Numbered from the stretch's first letter, positions 1,954-10,984 are shown. The stretch is 11,779 nucleotides of DNA from Candidatus Nanohalobium sp. (GCA_042216335.1 JBDGTY010000054.1:1-11779), one strand, 5' to 3'. Translations and numbers: made by a program. The notes: generated by a model not told the origin, from the sequence alone.

Positions 1954-3414
1954 TTAGTTCCGAAGATTCTCCATGATGAACCGTTTCTCCTTCCTCAGGA
2001 TCCGCTGCGAAACCTGCTCAACAGACCCATCAGGAACCGCGACGACCTCCACACCGTTCTCGACGACCGCCCTGAGAACCTCCTCGGATACGCTCCTGAT
2101 CGCAAGCACCCTGACATTCTCCACGACCTCAAGACACCTCAGAAGCGCCGCGTCCTCGATATCACGGCCATCCACCAGGTCAGGGTCTTCAACCAGTATC
2201 TCCTCGCAGCTATCGGCGAACTCCTGCTCCGAATCCTGGTAGCTGAACGGGTTTTCGGAAAGCCCGGGGAACTGATCGATCGACCTGACCTCCGTAGCCG
2301 CCACACCCGAGAACGAAACCTCCTTTGAAGCATCTGAAACCTCGGAAACGTTTCCTTCATCCTCTCTTCTGCCCCGCTGCCTTCTCTTTTGCTGTCGGGA
2401 GCTACTGCCGGCTCTGATCCTGTCCTCGTTTTCCAGGGACACTACAGCAGGAAGACCGCTGGCCCTCATCTGCTGTGAATCCGTCGTAGTATACCCCCCT
2501 TTCTTCGCCACCAGCGGCCGGTCGGCTCTCCGGGTTTCATCGGAAAGGATGTAGTCTTCTCCTTCTCTACCCTCTATCTCACCCTCGGAAACCTTCAATG
2601 CTTTCAGGTCGGACTCCACGTTGATAGGTTCTGTTTTGAACGCATCCACTATGTAAAAGCTGCCTCTCTTGTACACGAACTTTATACTAAGTCCTTCACG
2701 CGACGCCTTCTTCGCCAGGTCCTCTATCTCCGAGTTCTGAAACGTTGGAGAGCTGTTCGATATCGTTCTGGTTCTTCTCTGGCCGTTCATCGGGTTCCTG
2801 GTTACCTTCACCTGTTTGTCCGGCACACGCGTGTCTTGAACGGAAGCGTCGTTGAGAAGGTAGAACTCCGGAACAGTTATGCCTTCCTCAAGCGAGTGGC
2901 CCAGTCCTTCGACTATCTCTACGAGCGAATGCCTTCTCGTGTAGTTTTTGATGACCGCTCCGGTGTACTCCGGCTCTATCATCTTCTGGAAAATTATCGC
3001 AGGCGTGTCAGAGTTCTCCCGGTAGTAAGAGCTCAGAACCTTTCTTAAAGCTTCTTCAAGCCCTGAAGCACCCACGTTTAGTTTGTACTCCGCCAGGTTT
3101 TCGCTAGAGCTTATCCTGACTGATACCCTCTGGCTTTCCCTCTGGTTGCCGACCAGGTTTCTTGCCTGGCCCGACGCGTTCCTGACCTCGGATGCCATAC
3201 CGATGTCCTGGTACGCGGACTTCACCTTCTCAACCAGGTCTTCCGGGATCTTCTGGTTGGCGATCCTCTGAGGATCACGCGACTCCAAGAAATCCTCTAC
3301 CTCTGACTTAGTCAGTACGAAGAAGTTCGGTACCTCGAAGTTCTCCAGAGATTCCAGGTTTGCGGCCTTCTCACCGGCCTCTTCCCTCTGAACGTTTCCT
3401 TTCCACTGAACCAT
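1954..3414 (-). CDS. PEP synthase/pyruvate,water dikinase-like protein (PPDK_N domain), shortened and probably catalytically inactive, 486 aa
   Basis: GEKAANL..VPNFFVLT, VSVRISS, IIFQKMI and EGLGHSLEEG resemble the PpsA N-terminal domain. GGYTTTDSQQMRASGLPAVV aligns to GGRTSHAAIVARELGIPAVV with no His. The C-terminus resembles the last helices of PpsA. Confidence 0.8.
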   Translation of the reverse strand: MVQWKGNVQREEAGEKAANLESLENFEVPNFFVLTKSEVEDFLESRDPQRIANQKIPEDLVEKVKSAYQDIGMASEVRNASGQARNLVGNQRESQRVSVRISSSENLAEYKLNVGASGLEEALRKVLSSYYRENSDTPAIIFQKMIEPEYTGAVIKNYTRRHSLVEIVEGLGHSLEEGITVPEFYLLNDASVQDTRVPDKQVKVTRNPMNGQRRTRTISNSSPTFQNSEIEDLAKKASREGLSIKFVYKRGSFYIVDAFKTEPINVESDLKALKVSEGEIEGREGEDYILSDETRRADRPLVAKKGGYTTTDSQQMRASGLPAVVSLENEDRIRAGSSSRQQKRRQRGRREDEGNVSEVSDASKEVSFSGVAATEVRSIDQFPGLSENPFSYQDSEQEFADSCEEILVEDPDLVDGRDIEDAALLRCLEVVENVRVLAIRSVSEEVLRAVVENGVEVVAVPDGSVEQVSQRILRKEKRFIMENLRN

Positions 3415-4599: not shown

Positions 4600-5850
4600 G
4601 TGACAGTCCACGTCTTCCAGATCGGTTGCCAGGATATCGGCAGGCTCGGATTCGAAAAGTTCCTAGAATTCGAGGACTACTTCCCAGTAGATGTCGTGTT
4701 CGAAGGAGTGCACTGCAAGGACTTCGAAGCCGAGGAAAGAGCGGAGAAGTTCGCGGAGACGCTGGAAAAGGATATCGAGTTCTACGACGGCATCGATGAG
4801 CTGTACCAGGCCGCCCAGGAGGTAGAAGGAGAAGTATTGATCTACGACGCCGGGCCACCGCAGCTTCACAGCAGGAACATCGCTGAGTCACTGAGCCACG
4901 ACTTCCACCACCTGACTGAGAAACCGCCTTCAGTCACCCGCGACGAACATATCAGCGAGAGGAAGCTGGCCTCCCGGTCGAAAGTGAACTACAAGGTCGA
5001 CTTCATCGAGAGGGAGAACCCAGTAGTCCAGAAAATGGAAGAACTTGTCAAAGACGAGAAGGTTGAAAGGATAGAGGTCTTCCGCGAGTCCTCCTTCGGA
5101 ATCCAAAAGGTTCTCCAGCCCGTGGACTTCGCCCACGTCAAGGGAGGAGCAGTACTGGACAAGATGTCGAACGACATCTACGTGCTGGATATACTCGGAG
5201 ATGAGTTCGAGTTCGAGGAAACTGATATAGACTTTCTGATGCCGGAGAACCTAGGCGGCGAGAAGGTCCTGAGGACGGACGGCAGCGGAAGCCGCGAGAT
5301 AGATGAGAACATAGCAATCGGAAAGTGTAAAGGAGTATTCTCCTCCGGAGATACACGAGTTGAGCTGAACGCTTCCTGGCTGGGCCTGAGCGACGAAGCC
5401 CGTGTCCAGAACCAGGAAGTCCGCGAGAAATTCGACGCAGAGGTGCTGAAGTCGGAGCACCGCGAAATCGACGGCAAAGGCTTCCAGGACGAGGAATGCA
5501 GGTTCCTCGTGGTTGAGGGAGAGAGAAGAGTTCTCGGCGACCTGATGAACCAGAGGATCTACGACCTGGAGAACAAGGAAGAGTTAGAGGTTCCCGAGTT
5601 CCCACGCGACCAGCTCTACAGAGTGTTGGAAAAAGCAGTACTGGACGCCGCAGGCATTGAGAACTATGAGGTAGATGAGGAAGAGGTCGACAGCTTCATG
5701 AACGGACTGTTCGACATACAGGATAGATGCAGCGAGGAGTTCGACAGCGTCTTCGATGCCGTGGATGAGGCCTCGGAGCGGATCCGCTCGCTGATGAGTT
5801 CCGATAAAAAGATTTCAGAACAACCTGATGTCAAGGGAGTCGCCAGATGA
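4600..5850 (+). CDS. Gfo/Idh/MocA-family oxidoreductase-like protein (divergent), 416 aa
   Basis: Rossmann-like start VFQIGCQDIG, family motif HHLTEKP, ERENPVV and GGAVLDKMSND are present. It uses a GTG start and overlaps the next gene by ATGA. Confidence 0.75.
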   Translation: MTVHVFQIGCQDIGRLGFEKFLEFEDYFPVDVVFEGVHCKDFEAEERAEKFAETLEKDIEFYDGIDELYQAAQEVEGEVLIYDAGPPQLHSRNIAESLSHDFHHLTEKPPSVTRDEHISERKLASRSKVNYKVDFIERENPVVQKMEELVKDEKVERIEVFRESSFGIQKVLQPVDFAHVKGGAVLDKMSNDIYVLDILGDEFEFEETDIDFLMPENLGGEKVLRTDGSGSREIDENIAIGKCKGVFSSGDTRVELNASWLGLSDEARVQNQEVREKFDAEVLKSEHREIDGKGFQDEECRFLVVEGERRVLGDLMNQRIYDLENKEELEVPEFPRDQLYRVLEKAVLDAAGIENYEVDEEEVDSFMNGLFDIQDRCSEEFDSVFDAVDEASERIRSLMSSDKKISEQPDVKGVAR

Positions 5851-6947
5851 AAGCCGTGATACCCGCCGCAAAGAAGAAAGAGGACATGTTCCCGTTTTCA
5901 GAAACCATGCCTACCGCACTGATGCCAGTAGCCGGAAAACCCGTAATAAAACATAATATCGATGCATTGCGGGAGAACGGCGTCGACGAGATCTACATAG
6001 TCACGAACTACAAGGAGGAGATGTTCGAGGACGAGTTCGGAGAAAGAACGGACGTGAACATCGTACACCAGGAGGAACTGGAGGGAACGGCCTCGGCAGT
6101 CGGGACCTGCGACTTCATCGAAGACGACTTCATAGTGGTGAACGGAGACGTCATAATCTCGAAGAAAGACATCTCCCGTTTGATCGAAAAGTTCGAGCAG
6201 GAGGATTCGACCAGCATACTCGCAACTTATGAAAACAGGCCGGAGAAGTTCGGAGTCCTCAGCATAGAGAACGACGAGGTCAAGAAAATAGAGGAGAAAC
6301 CGGAAGACCCGGAAAACCCATTGATCAACACAGGCATCTACTGCTTCAAACCAGAGATATTCACCACGATCAGCTCACTGGACGAGGAGGAAGACAGCCT
6401 GACAGACGCAGTCCAGAAAACCGTCGATGACAGTTCTGCGTACTTCGTCATCGCCGAAGACTACTGGATCGACATCGGATCAGGTGAGAAACTGTGGGAA
6501 GCAGACAGGATAAAGAGAGAAGCCACAGTAACCGAGACAGAGATAGATGACAGTGCGGAGGTCAGCGACGACGCAGTACTCGAAGGAAACATAGTCGTCG
6601 GAGAAGATGCTGTTGTCGAGGCCGGCGCAGTCCTGAAAGGCCAGTGCATAATCGGAGAGAACGTTCGAGTAGAGCCGGGAACAGTAATCAAAGACTCCAC
6701 AGTCATAGAGGATTCCCAGCTCGACCAGTGCAGCGTCGAGAGCTGCCTCTTATTCAGGGAAAACATCCTGGACTCATTCGTCGCAGCCGAGAACTGCGTA
6801 CTGGGAGAAGAATGCAATGTGAAGCCCGGGACAGTCATCCGCGAATCACTTATCGGCGCCAGAAGCTTCGTAGAGGCCAACAACACGATCCTAGGCACCA
6901 AGTTCGTCCCGGACGCCCGGACCGACATCGGCGAGATCAGCAAGTAG
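5847..6947 (+). CDS. Sugar-phosphate nucleotidyltransferase/LbH (GlmU/GCD1-like) protein A with a degenerate N-terminal signature, 366 aa
   Basis: MKAVIPAA, PVAGKP, Q...GTASAV, VVNGD, FGVL, EEKP, INTGIY and YWIDIG are followed by hexapeptide repeats. The GxGTR motif is replaced by KKKED. Confidence 0.85.
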   Translation: MKAVIPAAKKKEDMFPFSETMPTALMPVAGKPVIKHNIDALRENGVDEIYIVTNYKEEMFEDEFGERTDVNIVHQEELEGTASAVGTCDFIEDDFIVVNGDVIISKKDISRLIEKFEQEDSTSILATYENRPEKFGVLSIENDEVKKIEEKPEDPENPLINTGIYCFKPEIFTTISSLDEEEDSLTDAVQKTVDDSSAYFVIAEDYWIDIGSGEKLWEADRIKREATVTETEIDDSAEVSDDAVLEGNIVVGEDAVVEAGAVLKGQCIIGENVRVEPGTVIKDSTVIEDSQLDQCSVESCLLFRENILDSFVAAENCVLGEECNVKPGTVIRESLIGARSFVEANNTILGTKFVPDARTDIGEISK

Positions 6948-6949
6948 AA

Positions 6950-6956
6950 TTTTTAA
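6950..6956 (+). promoter_or_regulatory. Putative TATA box of the EamA gene
   Basis: TTTTTAA lies 23-29 nt upstream of ATG 6979. Confidence 0.5.
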
Positions 6957-6978
6957 CCGTTTGTGCGTGAGCAGAGTT

Positions 6979-7836
6979 ATGGATATCGGTGTCATCTTGG
7001 CGCTTTTCTCTGCCTTTGTTTCTGCTTCCAGAGAGTCTTTCAGGAAGCATGTCTCACGTGACTTTTCCTCTGTCGAGATTGGTTTTATGGGGCAGGTTTA
7101 CGGAGTTATCCTGCTTTTTCCTTTTGCTGCATGGTTTTACCTGAAGAGCGGCTTAACCTTGACTCCTGGCGTTCTTCTTGCTGTAGTTGTCTCGGGAGGT
7201 CTTGTCGTGGCCACGACCTATATCTACGTGGAGGCGATGCGTATTTCCGATATCTCGATGACTGAGCCTCTGCGCCAGACCACCCCTATTTTCGTGGCGA
7301 TCCTTGAGCCACTGGTTCTGGGCATAAGCTTCAGCAAGATGGTTCTGGGAGGTGCGTTGCTGGGCACAGTTGGATCGTATATCATGGTTTCTGACAAGGG
7401 CCTGAAGCAGCCTATCGAGAACGTCAGCAACCGTGGCGCACTGATGGCGCTGTCTGTGGCATTCCTGTTCGGTATCTGGGCTCTGGCTTCACGTTTCGGG
7501 GCCACGAACGCGCATCCCCTGCTTTTCTCCTACATGACGTATATCGCAGCCCTGACAGGATTCTGGATATGGAAGAGGAAGCGTTCGATAAGCATAGACA
7601 GGAAAAGCTACCTGAGGAAGGATGTGTTCGCGATGGGAGCTATTACAGCCCTGAGCGCGGTTGCCGGGATCTACGCTTACTCGATGCTTTCGGCCTCTGA
7701 AACCACGATAATCAAGCAGACTTCAGGAGTCTTCGGAGTGCTGATAGGAGGACGGTTCTTCAGGGAGGAGGACATACTCAGGAAACTTATAGGAGCCGTG
7801 ATCATAGTGTCAGCAGTGGCGCTGGTAGCCCTGTAG
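6979..7836 (+). CDS. EamA/DMT-family transporter, about 285 aa
   Basis: About ten hydrophobic segments fall in two repeats, with DMT motifs PLRQTTPIFVAIL and QTSGVFGVLIGGRFFREE..RKLIGA. ATG 6979 is preferred over TTG 6961. Confidence 0.9.
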   Translation: MDIGVILALFSAFVSASRESFRKHVSRDFSSVEIGFMGQVYGVILLFPFAAWFYLKSGLTLTPGVLLAVVVSGGLVVATTYIYVEAMRISDISMTEPLRQTTPIFVAILEPLVLGISFSKMVLGGALLGTVGSYIMVSDKGLKQPIENVSNRGALMALSVAFLFGIWALASRFGATNAHPLLFSYMTYIAALTGFWIWKRKRSISIDRKSYLRKDVFAMGAITALSAVAGIYAYSMLSASETTIIKQTSGVFGVLIGGRFFREEDILRKLIGAVIIVSAVALVAL

Positions 7837-7841
7837 AATGG

Positions 7842-7850
7842 AATATTAAA
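7842..7850 (+). promoter_or_regulatory. Putative TATA box of GlmU-like gene B
   Basis: AATATTAAA lies 23-31 nt upstream of GTG 7873. Confidence 0.5.
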
Positions 7851-7872
7851 GTTGCAGAACAAAGCTTGGAAC

Positions 7873-9138
7873 GTGAAAGCAGTAATACTGGCCGCCGGCG
7901 AGTCAAGCAGGTTCAAACCATTAAGCGATAAGAGACACAAGGCACTGACCCATATCCTAGGAAAGCCGATTATAGAGCATACTATCGAAGAGTTACGAGA
8001 GGCTAGCGTCGAAGAAGTCATAGTCGTACAGGGCCCGGAGAAAAATATAGAAGAAGAACTTGGAGGCGCTGCCGATAGATATGTTGTACAGGAGGAGCCG
8101 AACGGCATGGGCCACGCATTGAATCAGGCACGGGAGTTCCTGGATGACAAGTTTCTGGTTTTAACGCCTTACCGTTCCCGTGCGTCGGAACTCTTCGAAC
8201 CAATGATGCAGAAAGCAGAGAGGGAAGACGCAAAAATTGTATTCGTTTCTTCAGAAACTAAGGAGCCGGAGAAGTACGGCATACTGGACGTAGAGGATGG
8301 AAAAGCTACAGATATAGTGGAGAAGCCGGAGCCAGGAGAGGCCCCCAGCGACAGAAAAGTCGTCGGAATGTACCTTCTCAGTCCGGAATTCTTCGATCAC
8401 CTTGATTCGGTAGAGGAGTGGGAGTACCAGTACGAAGACGCACTCTCAAGCATGATGGAAGAAAATCCAGCAGAAGTAGTCAAGATAGAGGAGGAGCCCG
8501 GCTCGATAAAGTATCCCTGGGACCTCTTCGATGTAATAAACGAGCTGATGGCAGAAAAAGAGAGAAGTATCAGCGGTTCAGCCGAGATAGCCGAGTCAGC
8601 ACAGGTCAAAGGAAAAGTCATAATCGAGGAAGGAGCCACAGTATACGAGAACGCTGTCGTGAAGGGACCAGCCTACATCGGAAGAAATGCCGTGGTCGGA
8701 AACAACGCAATCCTCCGAAACGGGTCAGTACTAGAGGAGAGCACTGTGGCCGGCGCAAACAGCGAGATAAAGAACTCGATACTTCAGCCCGGAGCATCAA
8801 CACATTCAGGCTTCGTAGGAGACTCAATCATCGGAAGAAACACAAAGATAGGTGCCGGCACTATTGTAGCAAACCGTGGCTTCCGGGAGGAGGGAGACAG
8901 ACCAGAGATAGAAGTCGATCTGATGGGAAAGGACAGGAAGGAAGGATCAGGAAGAAATTCACTCGGATGTTTCATCGGGGAAAACGTCGACATCGGAGTT
9001 AACTGCTCAATAATGCCGGGAATAGAGATTGGAAGCAACTCCAAAGTCGGGCCGGGAACAGTCGTAAAGGAAAACGTGAAACCCAGGGAAACAGTGTATG
9101 TAGACCAGGAACAGGTGAGGAAAGATCAAAACCAATAG
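7873..9138 (+). CDS. glmU: Archaeal GlmU-like bifunctional sugar-1-phosphate nucleotidyltransferase/acetyltransferase B, about 421 aa
   Basis: KAVILAAGESSRFKPL...K, YGIL..IVEKP and YPWDL are present, followed by a long LbH with HSGFVGDSIIG, IGAGTIVAN and GRNSLGCFIGENVDIGVNCSIMPG typical of archaeal GlmU. GTG at 7873 gives MKAVILAAG. Confidence 0.85.
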   Translation: MKAVILAAGESSRFKPLSDKRHKALTHILGKPIIEHTIEELREASVEEVIVVQGPEKNIEEELGGAADRYVVQEEPNGMGHALNQAREFLDDKFLVLTPYRSRASELFEPMMQKAEREDAKIVFVSSETKEPEKYGILDVEDGKATDIVEKPEPGEAPSDRKVVGMYLLSPEFFDHLDSVEEWEYQYEDALSSMMEENPAEVVKIEEEPGSIKYPWDLFDVINELMAEKERSISGSAEIAESAQVKGKVIIEEGATVYENAVVKGPAYIGRNAVVGNNAILRNGSVLEESTVAGANSEIKNSILQPGASTHSGFVGDSIIGRNTKIGAGTIVANRGFREEGDRPEIEVDLMGKDRKEGSGRNSLGCFIGENVDIGVNCSIMPGIEIGSNSKVGPGTVVKENVKPRETVYVDQEQVRKDQNQ

Positions 9139-9201
9139 AGTCGTTTCGCAGCGCAAAGCGGCAGATGATAATCAAACTTTCAGAAGCTCGGTGAGGAAAA
9201 A

Positions 9202-9693
9202 TTGAGGATCGGCATAGACTTCGACCGCGTCATCTTCGACACCGACAGCTTCAACGAATATCTGAAGGAAGAAGTGGAGGGACTTGAACATGTAGAAACC
9301 TCCCCATACAATGAGCACGGAGTCTACAGCCCGGAGATACACGCAGAGATTTGCGGCATAGACGTGGAAAGAATTTACGATGCTATGGAAGAGCTGGGAG
9401 GTTTCGTATACGATGACATTTCAGATATCAGTTCTACCGACCATGAACTAGTCCTGATTACCCGTGGACAGAAATATTATCAGAAAAAGAAGATCGAAGG
9501 TGCTGGAGTAGAGGATAAATTCGACAAGACAATAGTGGTGGAGAAAGGTTCGAAAGACGTGGCAGACATCGACTTCCTAATCGACGACCAGAAAAGAGAG
9601 ATAGAGAAGGCAGGAGTCCCGGGCTTCGAATTCGACAGAGAGAAGCATTCGCTGAGCGATGCACTGGAGGAGGCTGAAAAGCATGAAACCTGA
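9202..9693 (+). CDS. HAD-superfamily hydrolase (small phosphatase/nucleotidase-like), 163 aa
   Basis: Motif I IGIDFDRVIFDT, motif II LITRG, a Lys in GSK and motif IV FLIDD are present. A strong SD GGTGAGG at 9190-9196 precedes the TTG start. Confidence 0.8.
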   Translation: MRIGIDFDRVIFDTDSFNEYLKEEVEGLEHVETSPYNEHGVYSPEIHAEICGIDVERIYDAMEELGGFVYDDISDISSTDHELVLITRGQKYYQKKKIEGAGVEDKFDKTIVVEKGSKDVADIDFLIDDQKREIEKAGVPGFEFDREKHSLSDALEEAEKHET

Positions 9694-10984
9694 GAAAGTG
9701 TTCAAAAGGTATGATGTACGCGGCAGATATCCTGAAGAACTGGATGAGGAATTCGTGGAGAGGATGGGAAAATCCCTGGAAAAATGGGTCCTGGAAAACA
9801 GTGGAGAGAAAGTCGTAGTGTGCAGGGACAACAAGGAAAGCTCTGAAAGCCTCAAGAAGAGTCTGGTAGAAGGCATCACATCTATAGGCGTTGATGTGGT
9901 CGATGCTGGTGTCGGCCCTACTGATTACACGTCATTCCACGGAAGCAGGGAAGACGCTGTCAGCGTCCAGGTCACTTCTTCTCACATGCCTCTGGAGTTC
10001 AACGGCCTGAAGTTCATGTACCCAAGGGGAAACGGCTTCCTCAACGACGATCTAAATATGCTGGAAGAGTTCTTCCACAAAGAGGATTTTCCAGATGGAA
10101 ACGGCGATATAAGGAAGCTGGAAGAACCCGGAGAGGATTATATCGAAGATGTAGTGGAGTACGTCAGGCAGAAAGGCGGAGAGTTCGACAGGAGAGTCGT
10201 GGTCGACAGCATGGGAGGAGCCACGCGAAACTTCCTGCCCGAAGTCCTGGAGAGACTTGGTTTCGACGTGATCGATCTGGCAGAGGGCAGAGAAGGAATC
10301 TACAGGAATCCTCCGGATCCCAGGCCCGAAATACTGGGAGAGCTAGCCGAAAAAGTTGAAGAGGAAGATGCGTACATGGGCCTGGCGACCGACCTCGACG
10401 GAGACCGGGTCCAGGTATACTTTGACGGCGACTGGATTTCGGGCGACGACCTGTTCTGTATCTTCGCCCAGCTTTTTTCCGGCGAGGTGGTGGCGTCGGT
10501 CGATACCTCGAAGAACCTAGAGGAGTTCGCCGATAAGGTACATTACACCCGTGTAGGCGACCCTTTCGTCGTTGACAGGATGCTGAAGGAGGGTGCGGTG
10601 CTCTCGGGCGAGCCCAACGGCCATTACTGCTTCCCGGAGCTCATCAACTACAACTCTGGCACTCTGGCAGGCGCTCTCGCAGCCTCCATCGACTTCGATG
10701 GGAAGCTGGAGAAAGTTCCGGAAAGTTTCCTGGAGAAGGAGAACGTTGAATACGACGACAGGAATAAAAGGAACAGAGAGATGAAGAAGTTCAGGACGAA
10801 GGCTGTTTCTGAACTTGATATCGACTCCACAGCGGACGGCGTCAAGTTCACCTGTGGCGACGCTTCCGTACTTGTCAGGCCTTCAGGAAGCTCCCCGAAG
10901 ATCCGCGTGAAGTCCCAGGCCCCGAACAAGGAAGGGGCGGAGAATGGACTGGCGAAGGCACTGGATATTATAGGAAAGGAATAA
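9683..10984 (+). CDS. Alpha-D-phosphohexomutase (phosphomannomutase/phosphoglucomutase or phosphoglucosamine mutase), about 433 aa
   Basis: FKRYDVRG, catalytic VTSSHMP, metal loop DLDGDR, sugar loop GEPNGH and phosphate loop RPSGSSP are present. ATG 9683 has GGAGG upstream and overlaps the HAD gene by 11 nt. Confidence 0.93.
   Translation: MKPEKVFKRYDVRGRYPEELDEEFVERMGKSLEKWVLENSGEKVVVCRDNKESSESLKKSLVEGITSIGVDVVDAGVGPTDYTSFHGSREDAVSVQVTSSHMPLEFNGLKFMYPRGNGFLNDDLNMLEEFFHKEDFPDGNGDIRKLEEPGEDYIEDVVEYVRQKGGEFDRRVVVDSMGGATRNFLPEVLERLGFDVIDLAEGREGIYRNPPDPRPEILGELAEKVEEEDAYMGLATDLDGDRVQVYFDGDWISGDDLFCIFAQLFSGEVVASVDTSKNLEEFADKVHYTRVGDPFVVDRMLKEGAVLSGEPNGHYCFPELINYNSGTLAGALAASIDFDGKLEKVPESFLEKENVEYDDRNKRNREMKKFRTKAVSELDIDSTADGVKFTCGDASVLVRPSGSSPKIRVKSQAPNKEGAENGLAKALDIIGKE

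Follow-up and report, generated by a model that had tools for sequence, protein, structure and literature searches.

The stretch of DNA analysed here, hereafter the window, comprises 11,779 nucleotides from Candidatus Nanohalobium sp. and corresponds to one contig (C50) of a 1.02 Mb genome that is 96% complete. On its plus strand, positions 4600-10984 hold six genes encoding, in order, a GFO/IDH/MocA-like oxidoreductase (GFO-like protein), a protein designated A, an EamA transporter, a protein designated B, a small HAD-like protein and a phosphoglucosamine mutase, GlmM. The window holds a conserved UDP-N-acetylglucosamine (UDP-GlcNAc) cluster, with the order GFO-like, A, (EamA), GlmU (B), HAD-like, GlmM; GlmS is encoded elsewhere in the same genome, and close homologs of the window's proteins carry the names Nanohaloarchaea or Nanohalobium. 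The two proteins of main concern are A (5847..6947, 366 residues, ATG start), a GlmU-derived paralog, and B (7873..9138, 421 residues, GTG start, the homologs of which begin at the same MKAVILAAG), a GlmU of a subtype found in DPANN archaea and Patescibacteria. Both consist of an NTP_transferase domain followed by hexapeptide repeats according to Pfam, and both have ST0452 of Sulfolobus tokodaii (2ggo/5z09) as their best solved relative, with E values of 3e-38 for A and of 4e-57, over the full length, for B. Against the TIGR03992 model (Arch_glmU), whose curated cut-off is 292.1 bits, B scored above it (307.8 bits) and A below it (223.9 bits). The original prediction, made from the sequence alone, had described the two as paralogs with complementary active-site losses, neither of them looking like a complete nucleotidyltransferase.

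Residue conservation was determined in 120 homologs of each protein, the denominators varying by position. The nucleotide loop of B (AAGESSRFKPLSDKRHK, residues 7-23, 7891..7941) retains G9, R13 and K23 and reads AAG-E-SSR...HK, the second glycine of the ST0452 loop being replaced by a serine; within the nanohaloarchaeal B family, S11, S12 and R13 are present in 118/118 sequences, and H22 and K23 in 120/120. D99 and D208 are the two metal-binding aspartates of ST0452. At the first of these positions, the LTPY of B (8161-8172) aligns with YGD of ST0452, which places Tyr100 at the aspartate position, and the TPYR motif (8164..8175) stands in place of the metal-binding motif with P99 and Y100 in all 120 homologs. 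At the second, SIKYPW (8503..8520) replaces the DIGKPW of the ST0452 alignment: S211 takes the position of the aspartate and an invariant lysine, K213, follows two residues later (S211, K213, P215 and W216, each 120/120). The acetyltransferase core is preserved from H311, in HSGF (8803-8814), to N334, in IVAN (8803..8874 for the whole), both residues being found in 120/120 homologs, and the acetyltransferase substrate loop is present. Q73, G78, E150 and K151 are also among the invariant positions. The AlphaFold2 model of B, like that of A of fair confidence, has a predicted local distance difference test score (pLDDT) of 81.7.

Protein A shows a different set of losses. Its nucleotide loop (AAKKKEDMFPFSETMPT, residues 7-23, 5865..5915) departs from the canonical AAGxGxRLxPxTxxxPK, with AAKKKEDM...MPT facing AAGSGERL...RPK in ST0452, that is, G9 to Lys, G11 to Lys, R13 to Asp and K23 to Thr. 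In the A family, K10 is found in 112/113 sequences and T23 in 112/115; position 13 is occupied by Ser (61), Asp (19), Asn (13), Gly (12) or Ala (5) and never by Arg, and K21 is not conserved, being a Met in the window's copy. Both metal-binding motifs are kept, NGD at 6141..6149 (N99 and D101, 120/120) and WID at 6465..6473 (W207 and D209, 120/120), as is the sugar-binding EKP motif, with E150, K151 and P152 each in 120/120 homologs. The near-invariant positions comprise the base-recognition Gln and Gly, EKP and its neighbours, the two metal-binding aspartates and the beta-helix scaffold. The left-handed beta-helix of A is short and carries no acetyltransferase motif: position 310, that of the catalytic histidine, is Pro in 59 sequences, Ser in 42, Ala in 16, and His and Glu in one each, and a loop contributing to the acetyltransferase site, some 30 residues long, is missing. 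A was therefore ruled out as an acetyltransferase, given the absence of a conserved His and of this loop. The most conserved stretch of the protein is its C-terminal tail, KFVPDARTDxxEISK (6900..6944), which ends the chain; A357, R358, T359 and D360 are present in 120/120 homologs, and F353, V354, P355, E363 and K366 in 119/120. This tail has a low pLDDT in the AlphaFold2 model (80.8 overall), the best fold match of which is ST0452 with a template modelling (TM) score of 0.74, and TM scores of 0.61-0.72 were obtained with GMPPA and GMPPB chains at about 20% identity.

The motifs of both proteins are therefore as the original prediction had read them, in the window as in the homologs: the altered loop of A next to its intact NGD and WID, its short beta-helix, and in B the intact AAGESSR...K, HSGF and IVAN alongside LTPY and SIKYPW. 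Since the replacement residues are near-invariant in the 120 homologs of each protein, they are selected states and not products of chance or decay.

The pattern in the window is reciprocal, and it raises the question of an A+B heteromer in which A would give the metal-binding aspartates and B the loop Arg and Lys, or of a split enzyme of which neither part works alone. The linkage of the two genes in one cluster is in favour of such an arrangement, as is the beta-helix that both proteins keep, an oligomerisation domain in relatives and the one through which the subunits of ADP-glucose pyrophosphorylase (AGPase) pair (PMC13041757). Descent and distribution nevertheless speak against it. In a quick maximum-likelihood tree of 67 rows, B falls within a 28-row clade of B-type proteins (support 99), in which nanohaloarchaeal sequences stand together with those of Patescibacteria and other DPANN archaea. 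A forms a clade of its own (support 100) on a long stem outside the B-type clade and groups loosely (support 86) with canonical-type neighbours. A and B are thus not sister clades, and a recent duplication as their origin was ruled out by the tree. Their identity of 31%, taken together with the tree, makes them distant paralogs and not a recent pair dividing the work. On this topology, A is a separate, family-specific offshoot of canonical GlmU; a common descent of A with GMPPA, GlgD or the AGPase large subunit was not borne out, the A clade lying inside the archaeal GlmU radiation.

The distribution of the genes was determined in a phylum sample of 70 genomes, 50 of them in the window's family (f1, including the window's own genome) and 20 in families f2-f5 (18 in f4 and f5). 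Orthologs of A, at no less than 48% identity, are present in 47/50 f1 genomes and in 0/20 genomes of f2-f5, with two further f1 copies, one partial (G037) and one divergent (G061, 33% identity). The GFO-like gene follows the same distribution (48 of the 49 other f1 genomes, 0/20 in f2-f5), and in each of the 47 genomes with A its position is directly upstream of that gene. B-type orthologs occur in 21 f1 genomes at 58-70% identity, the window's own copy being the 100% reference, and in 11 of the 18 f4/f5 genomes at 44-52% identity, there in the absence of A; the B-type motifs were confirmed in 10/10 fetched f4/f5 proteins. In 20 other f1 genomes and four genomes of the genus g28, the closest match to B reaches no more than 34-43% identity, and the examples fetched (8/8 from f1, 4/4 from g28) are canonical-type GlmU with GxGTRM, PKPL, NGDD and W-x-PCSYPW motifs. 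The g28 form reaches 448 bits against TIGR03992, with the second aspartate absent.

The slot downstream of A holds this canonical-type GlmU in 20 f1 genomes, where it follows A in 20/20 cases and mostly within 70 nucleotides. In 16 of the 21 genomes with a B-type gene, this gene stands after A on the same strand; in the other five, the two lie on different contigs. No genome of the 70 carried both GlmU types intact (E<=1e-40), and both types occur within the genera g3 (G023-G027) and g7 (G032/G033; locus L113 and others), which looks like an in-place replacement or a differential loss of two non-sister forms. The order GFO-like, A, one or the other GlmU type, (HAD-like), GlmM was found in 12/12 fetched f1 loci; the core of GlmU, HAD-like and GlmM is also present in g28, and GlmU then GlmM in f5. 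Two irregular situations were observed. In G037, the partial A lies beside a GlmU-like frame with an in-frame stop (G037:C27:2619-5477), the B-type gene being on another contig. In some genomes of the genus g18 (G056:C24, G058:C1:21465-22397 and G059:C46), the only GlmU-like frame encodes 312-315 residues and lies beside or apart from A; at E<=1e-40 none of these frames was matched by B, and they may represent a truncated form.

A linkage of the two sets of losses, the lack of which in relatives the original prediction had named as counting against it, did not hold up in these data. The substitutions are conserved, but each set occurs without the other: B-type proteins exist without A in 11 f4/f5 genomes, in other DPANN archaea and in Patescibacteria, and A stands beside a canonical-type GlmU in 20 f1 genomes. 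Moreover, the active site lies within one domain in the nucleotidyltransferase fold. The losses in A and in B, as read from the distribution and the tree, arose independently and do not complement each other, and we give very little credence to an exchange of catalytic residues between the two chains.

To place B among its relatives, homologs were searched in 1.84 billion representatives (50% identity), yielding 598 proteins at E<=1e-30, the best 150 of which were aligned with MAFFT; in this wide set, 144 sequences have residues at both aspartate positions. The full signature (no Asp at positions 98-101, no Asp211, and Lys213) was found in 112/144, and both aspartates without the lysine in 7/144. 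K213 is present in 130/144 and D211 in 8/144, and the two nearly exclude each other, 129 of the 130 sequences with Lys213 being devoid of Asp211. Position 100 is variable (Tyr 40, His 28, Asn 20, Asp 19, Glu 9, and others), while R13 (137/137), K23 (138/139) and H311 (139/144) are almost always kept. Members of B-type carry labels such as Aenigmatarchaeota, Woesearchaeota, Pacearchaeota, Iainarchaeum and Nanohalarchaeota among DPANN archaea, and Colwellbacteria, Nealsonbacteria, Paceibacterota and "Saccharibacteria" among Patescibacteria. B is thus a member of a large subtype of the archaeal GlmU/ST0452 family, dominant in DPANN archaea and Patescibacteria. Its genomic associations include a fusion to a PGM/PMM mutase (P0245), fusions (P0259 and P0303) to a HAD domain whose weakly matched family, TIGR02253, is also that of the window's HAD-like protein, and a GlmM gene adjoining the B-type gene in 11/80 loci. 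In the limited literature collection searched for GlmU in Patescibacteria, the candidate phyla radiation or DPANN, no account of this subtype was found; two papers on Nanohaloarchaeota list the ortholog of B as an ordinary bifunctional enzyme and leave its motifs unmentioned (PMC7443923, PMC9765267).

Five small genomes with a B-type gene were examined, four of them from Patescibacteria, and no canonical GlmU over its cut-off was detected in any of the five. The only other NTP_transferase in G070, G073 and G074 is GalU-like (VAGLGTRFLP). GalU-like genes are present in 4/4 of the Patescibacteria genomes, and one of these, G072, also carries two canonical NTP-transferases of the GGKGTRL type. 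A murA-like match was obtained in 4/4 Patescibacteria genomes, over the family cut-off in 3/4 and about 1 kb or less from the B-type gene in 2/4. These Patescibacteria need UDP-GlcNAc, so that the B-type enzyme must either carry out the two steps itself or leave the second to GalU.

We infer that B is active and is most likely the functional GlmU of its organism. As a joint reading of the two proteins, we consider it fairly probable that B is a working bifunctional GlmU using a lysine in place of a metal, and that A is a catalytically inactive paralog binding a nucleotide sugar. B would first acetylate glucosamine 1-phosphate and then perform the uridylyl transfer; K213 would stand in for the metal bound by the protein, as the lysine of the eukaryotic UAP1 does, and a phosphate-bound Mg would remain. 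The Arg and Lys of the loop contact the leaving pyrophosphate, and the invariance of R13 and K23 across the subfamily argues for catalysis by B-type proteins. The second metal of the Mycobacterium tuberculosis GlmU is held by Asp114 and Asn239. [quoted passage not shown] The original prediction had named alternative metal ligands in B as a finding that would count against it, and what was found goes part of the way: an invariant lysine two residues after the lost second aspartate, with 129 of the 130 sequences that have this lysine showing no aspartate there. Its view that neither copy looks like a complete transferase stands for A, which appears impaired, and is not supported for B, which scores over the TIGR03992 cut-off and belongs to a deep, conserved subfamily.

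Several points weigh against a catalytic B. First, K213 is placed at the metal site by the register of the alignment alone. Secondly, changing either aspartate to Ala or Asn in AGPase abolished or severely impaired activity (PMC13041757), a precedent according to which the transferase site of B could be dead. Thirdly, the uridylyl transfer could be taken over by a GalU-like enzyme in Patescibacteria or, in the window's genome, by a transferase encoded on another contig, C13. Finally, the canonical-type GlmU found beside A in other genomes also lacks the second aspartate (WLPCSYPW), so that this position is variable even in canonical-looking members of the family.

The C13 protein is the intact NTP-transferase that was to be sought elsewhere in the genome. 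It has 322 residues with GGHATRL, RAKPL, GGD and FDVG motifs and scored 107.3 bits against the Arch_glmU model and 101.5 and 99 bits against GlgC models, all far under the cut-offs; its role may lie in the synthesis of glycogen, reported for Nanohalobium by La Cono et al. (PMC7443923). With this enzyme here, and GalU-like enzymes in Patescibacteria, in charge of uridylyl transfer, B could be an acetyltransferase only, its N-terminal domain acting as a regulatory or structural module that binds UTP or UDP-GlcNAc. The loss of both aspartate positions, the crippling effect of the corresponding changes in AGPase (PMC13041757), the intact C13 transferase and the GalU-like genes in all four Patescibacteria genomes are in line with this explanation. 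We regard it as unlikely, however, as a mere binding module would not need R13 and K23, invariant in a very deep subfamily; B-type and canonical-type GlmU swap in the same operon slot; the substitution of a lysine for a metal is documented in related enzymes (PMC8386105); and the C13 protein is far under the Arch_glmU and GlgC cut-offs and may be devoted to glycogen.

Two transferases occur in the genome besides A and B. One is the C13 protein; the other, a 248-residue protein encoded on contig C22 (G000; L004:1486-2232, minus strand), combines an N-terminal ribbon-helix-helix (CopG) domain with a nucleotidyltransferase domain that has no Gly loop and has NGH for NGD; frames like it in size match in many genomes of the phylum, and it could be a DNA-binding regulator sensing a nucleotide sugar. 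A search for UDPGP (PF01704) gave no match in the window's genome and none in 14 control genomes either, so that this result does not show absence.

Regarding A, the protein is probably disabled, having lost catalytic residues of both ancestral active sites and kept the sugar-nucleotide pocket. In the reading that we favour, it would catalyse neither reaction and would act as a sensor or regulatory subunit to which a nucleotide sugar binds, with the GFO-like protein, always co-encoded, and/or the neighbouring GlmU as putative partners. The active-site losses, the kept pocket and tail, and the precedents of AGPase and GMPPA favour such a ligand-binding, non-catalytic role: R102K and K112T, equivalent to the loop changes of A, were used as loss-of-function mutations in a plant AGPase (PMC13041757), and GMPPA is a product-binding paralog without catalytic activity that regulates GMPPB (PMC11228364). 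The regulatory role that the original prediction had proposed for A thus stands as a possibility, A looking impaired. A complex prediction for the GFO-like protein with A gave a score of 0.00 and no verdict, which says nothing for or against a contact. When longer proteins were searched for A in fused form, the known transferase-phosphomannomutase fusions (24-30% identity) were the only ones obtained, with no GFO-A or A-type fusion among them.

The invariant metal-binding aspartates, K10, and the Arg and Lys residues of the tail would fit an active enzyme as well as a sensor, and this counts against a purely non-catalytic A. In such an enzyme, K10 and/or R358, K352 and K366 of the tail would replace the loop Arg and Lys in a rebuilt site, and A would make or break another nucleotide sugar, or perform hydrolysis or phosphorolysis, as one of two steps, the other being that of the GFO-like oxidoreductase. 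The invariance of D101, D209, EKP and the base and sugar pocket, K10 in 112/113 sequences, and the invariant DARTD..EISK of the tail are compatible with this, as is the translational coupling and co-inheritance of A with an oxidoreductase of a family including NDP-sugar dehydrogenases. We nonetheless find an active A doubtful: the loop Arg position is variable (Ser, Asp, Asn, Gly or Ala), K21 is not conserved, and the search of longer proteins yielded no relative that is fused or characterised. In addition, the divergent A of G061 has lost EKP and kept the tail, which agrees better with binding or scaffolding than with catalysis. In that genome (L019, C3:861400-864600), the GFO-like protein and A have diverged together, with 27% and 33% identity. 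Another role for the tail would be to reach into a nucleotidyltransferase pocket, either its own or that of a neighbour in a mixed beta-helix trimer with GlmU, and to supply Arg and Lys there. This would imply a two-chain site by inter-subunit completion, and not an exchange of Asp for Arg between A and B; we hold it to be improbable.

The remaining genes of the cluster lie on the same strand. The GFO-like protein (4600..5850, 416 residues) matches Pfam GFO_IDH_MocA weakly, its stop codon overlapping the start of A (ATGA, 5847-5850); its EKP region matches PDB 3moi, its atlas feature score to GFO_IDH_MocA clusters is 0.96, and the models for UDP-GlcNAc 3-dehydrogenase and inositol dehydrogenase gave weak matches. 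In the window's genus, its Rossmann motif (4621-4641, plus strand) is IGCQDIG or IGCRD(I/F)G, another residue standing at the second Gly, and in other genera IGLGSFG; the binding of NAD(P) may be altered in this genus. Between A and B, a transporter of the EamA/DMT family (6961..7836; Pfam EamA, 6e-24) also matches, weakly, the triose-phosphate/nucleotide-sugar transporter family. Gaps between A and GlmU similar to this insert of about 0.9 kb were seen in G033, G040 and G069, the two genes being adjacent in most genomes. Downstream of B, the small HAD-like protein (9202..9693, 163 residues) has a DFDRV motif near its N-terminus and a weak match to TIGR02253. Its gene lies between GlmU and GlmM in 11/12 fetched f1 loci (not detected in L115) and also in g28, and the protein is possibly a phosphatase or pyrophosphatase. 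The phosphoglucosamine mutase (9659..10984), of the archaeal GlmM type, has all four PGM_PMM domains and reaches 272 bits against TIGR03990, under the cut-off of 439. Outside the cluster, a 486-residue protein on the minus strand (1954-3414) shows no match beyond that to the N-terminal ATP-binding domain of pyruvate phosphate dikinase (36.5 bits) and has a long, acidic and Arg-rich middle part.

What remains after this analysis is a widespread GlmU subtype with a probable lysine-for-metal active site, together with a putative doubly disabled GlmU paralog specific to one family. Archaeal glycosylation and bacterial cell walls both depend on UDP-GlcNAc. If B-type proteins are active, much of DPANN and Patescibacteria would make UDP-GlcNAc with a GlmU devoid of both metal ligands and equipped with a lysine, a convergent repeat, inside the GlmU family, of the solution of eukaryotic UAP1, and metal dependence and inhibitor sensitivity could differ. 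If they are inactive, genome-based pathway maps of these lineages mislabel a key step. A, for its part, is a candidate pseudoenzyme of prokaryotes, comparable in kind to GMPPA and linked to an oxidoreductase.

The closest known system is ST0452 with the TIGR03992 family, which shares with A and B the two-domain plan of an N-terminal nucleotidyltransferase and a left-handed beta-helix. B aligns with ST0452 over its full length, including the acetyltransferase His and Asn, but has no equivalents of D99 and D208 and has Lys213. A lacks the Arg and Lys of the Gly loop, the His and the acetyltransferase loop, and falls under the family cut-off. The likeness of B to UAP1/AGX1 lies in the conserved lysine that UAP1 has at the site of the protein-bound metal of GlmU, with one metal needed (PMC8386105). 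UAP1, however, belongs to the PF01704 family, and the lysine of B is assigned to this site by sequence register only.

Among impaired subunits, bacterial GlgD is comparable to A. GMPPA resembles A as a paralog made of a transferase domain and a beta-helix, which binds the product and regulates a catalytic partner (PMC11228364); it differs by the lack of orthology, A forming its own clade inside the archaeal GlmU radiation, and the contact between A and GlmU is putative. In the large subunit of plant AGPase, the loss-of-function changes R102K and K112T concern the two loop positions that are altered in A, and the subunits of this enzyme pair through their beta-helix domains (PMC13041757). AGPase is nevertheless a heterotetramer distant in sequence and without an acetyltransferase history, and some of its large subunits are catalytic.

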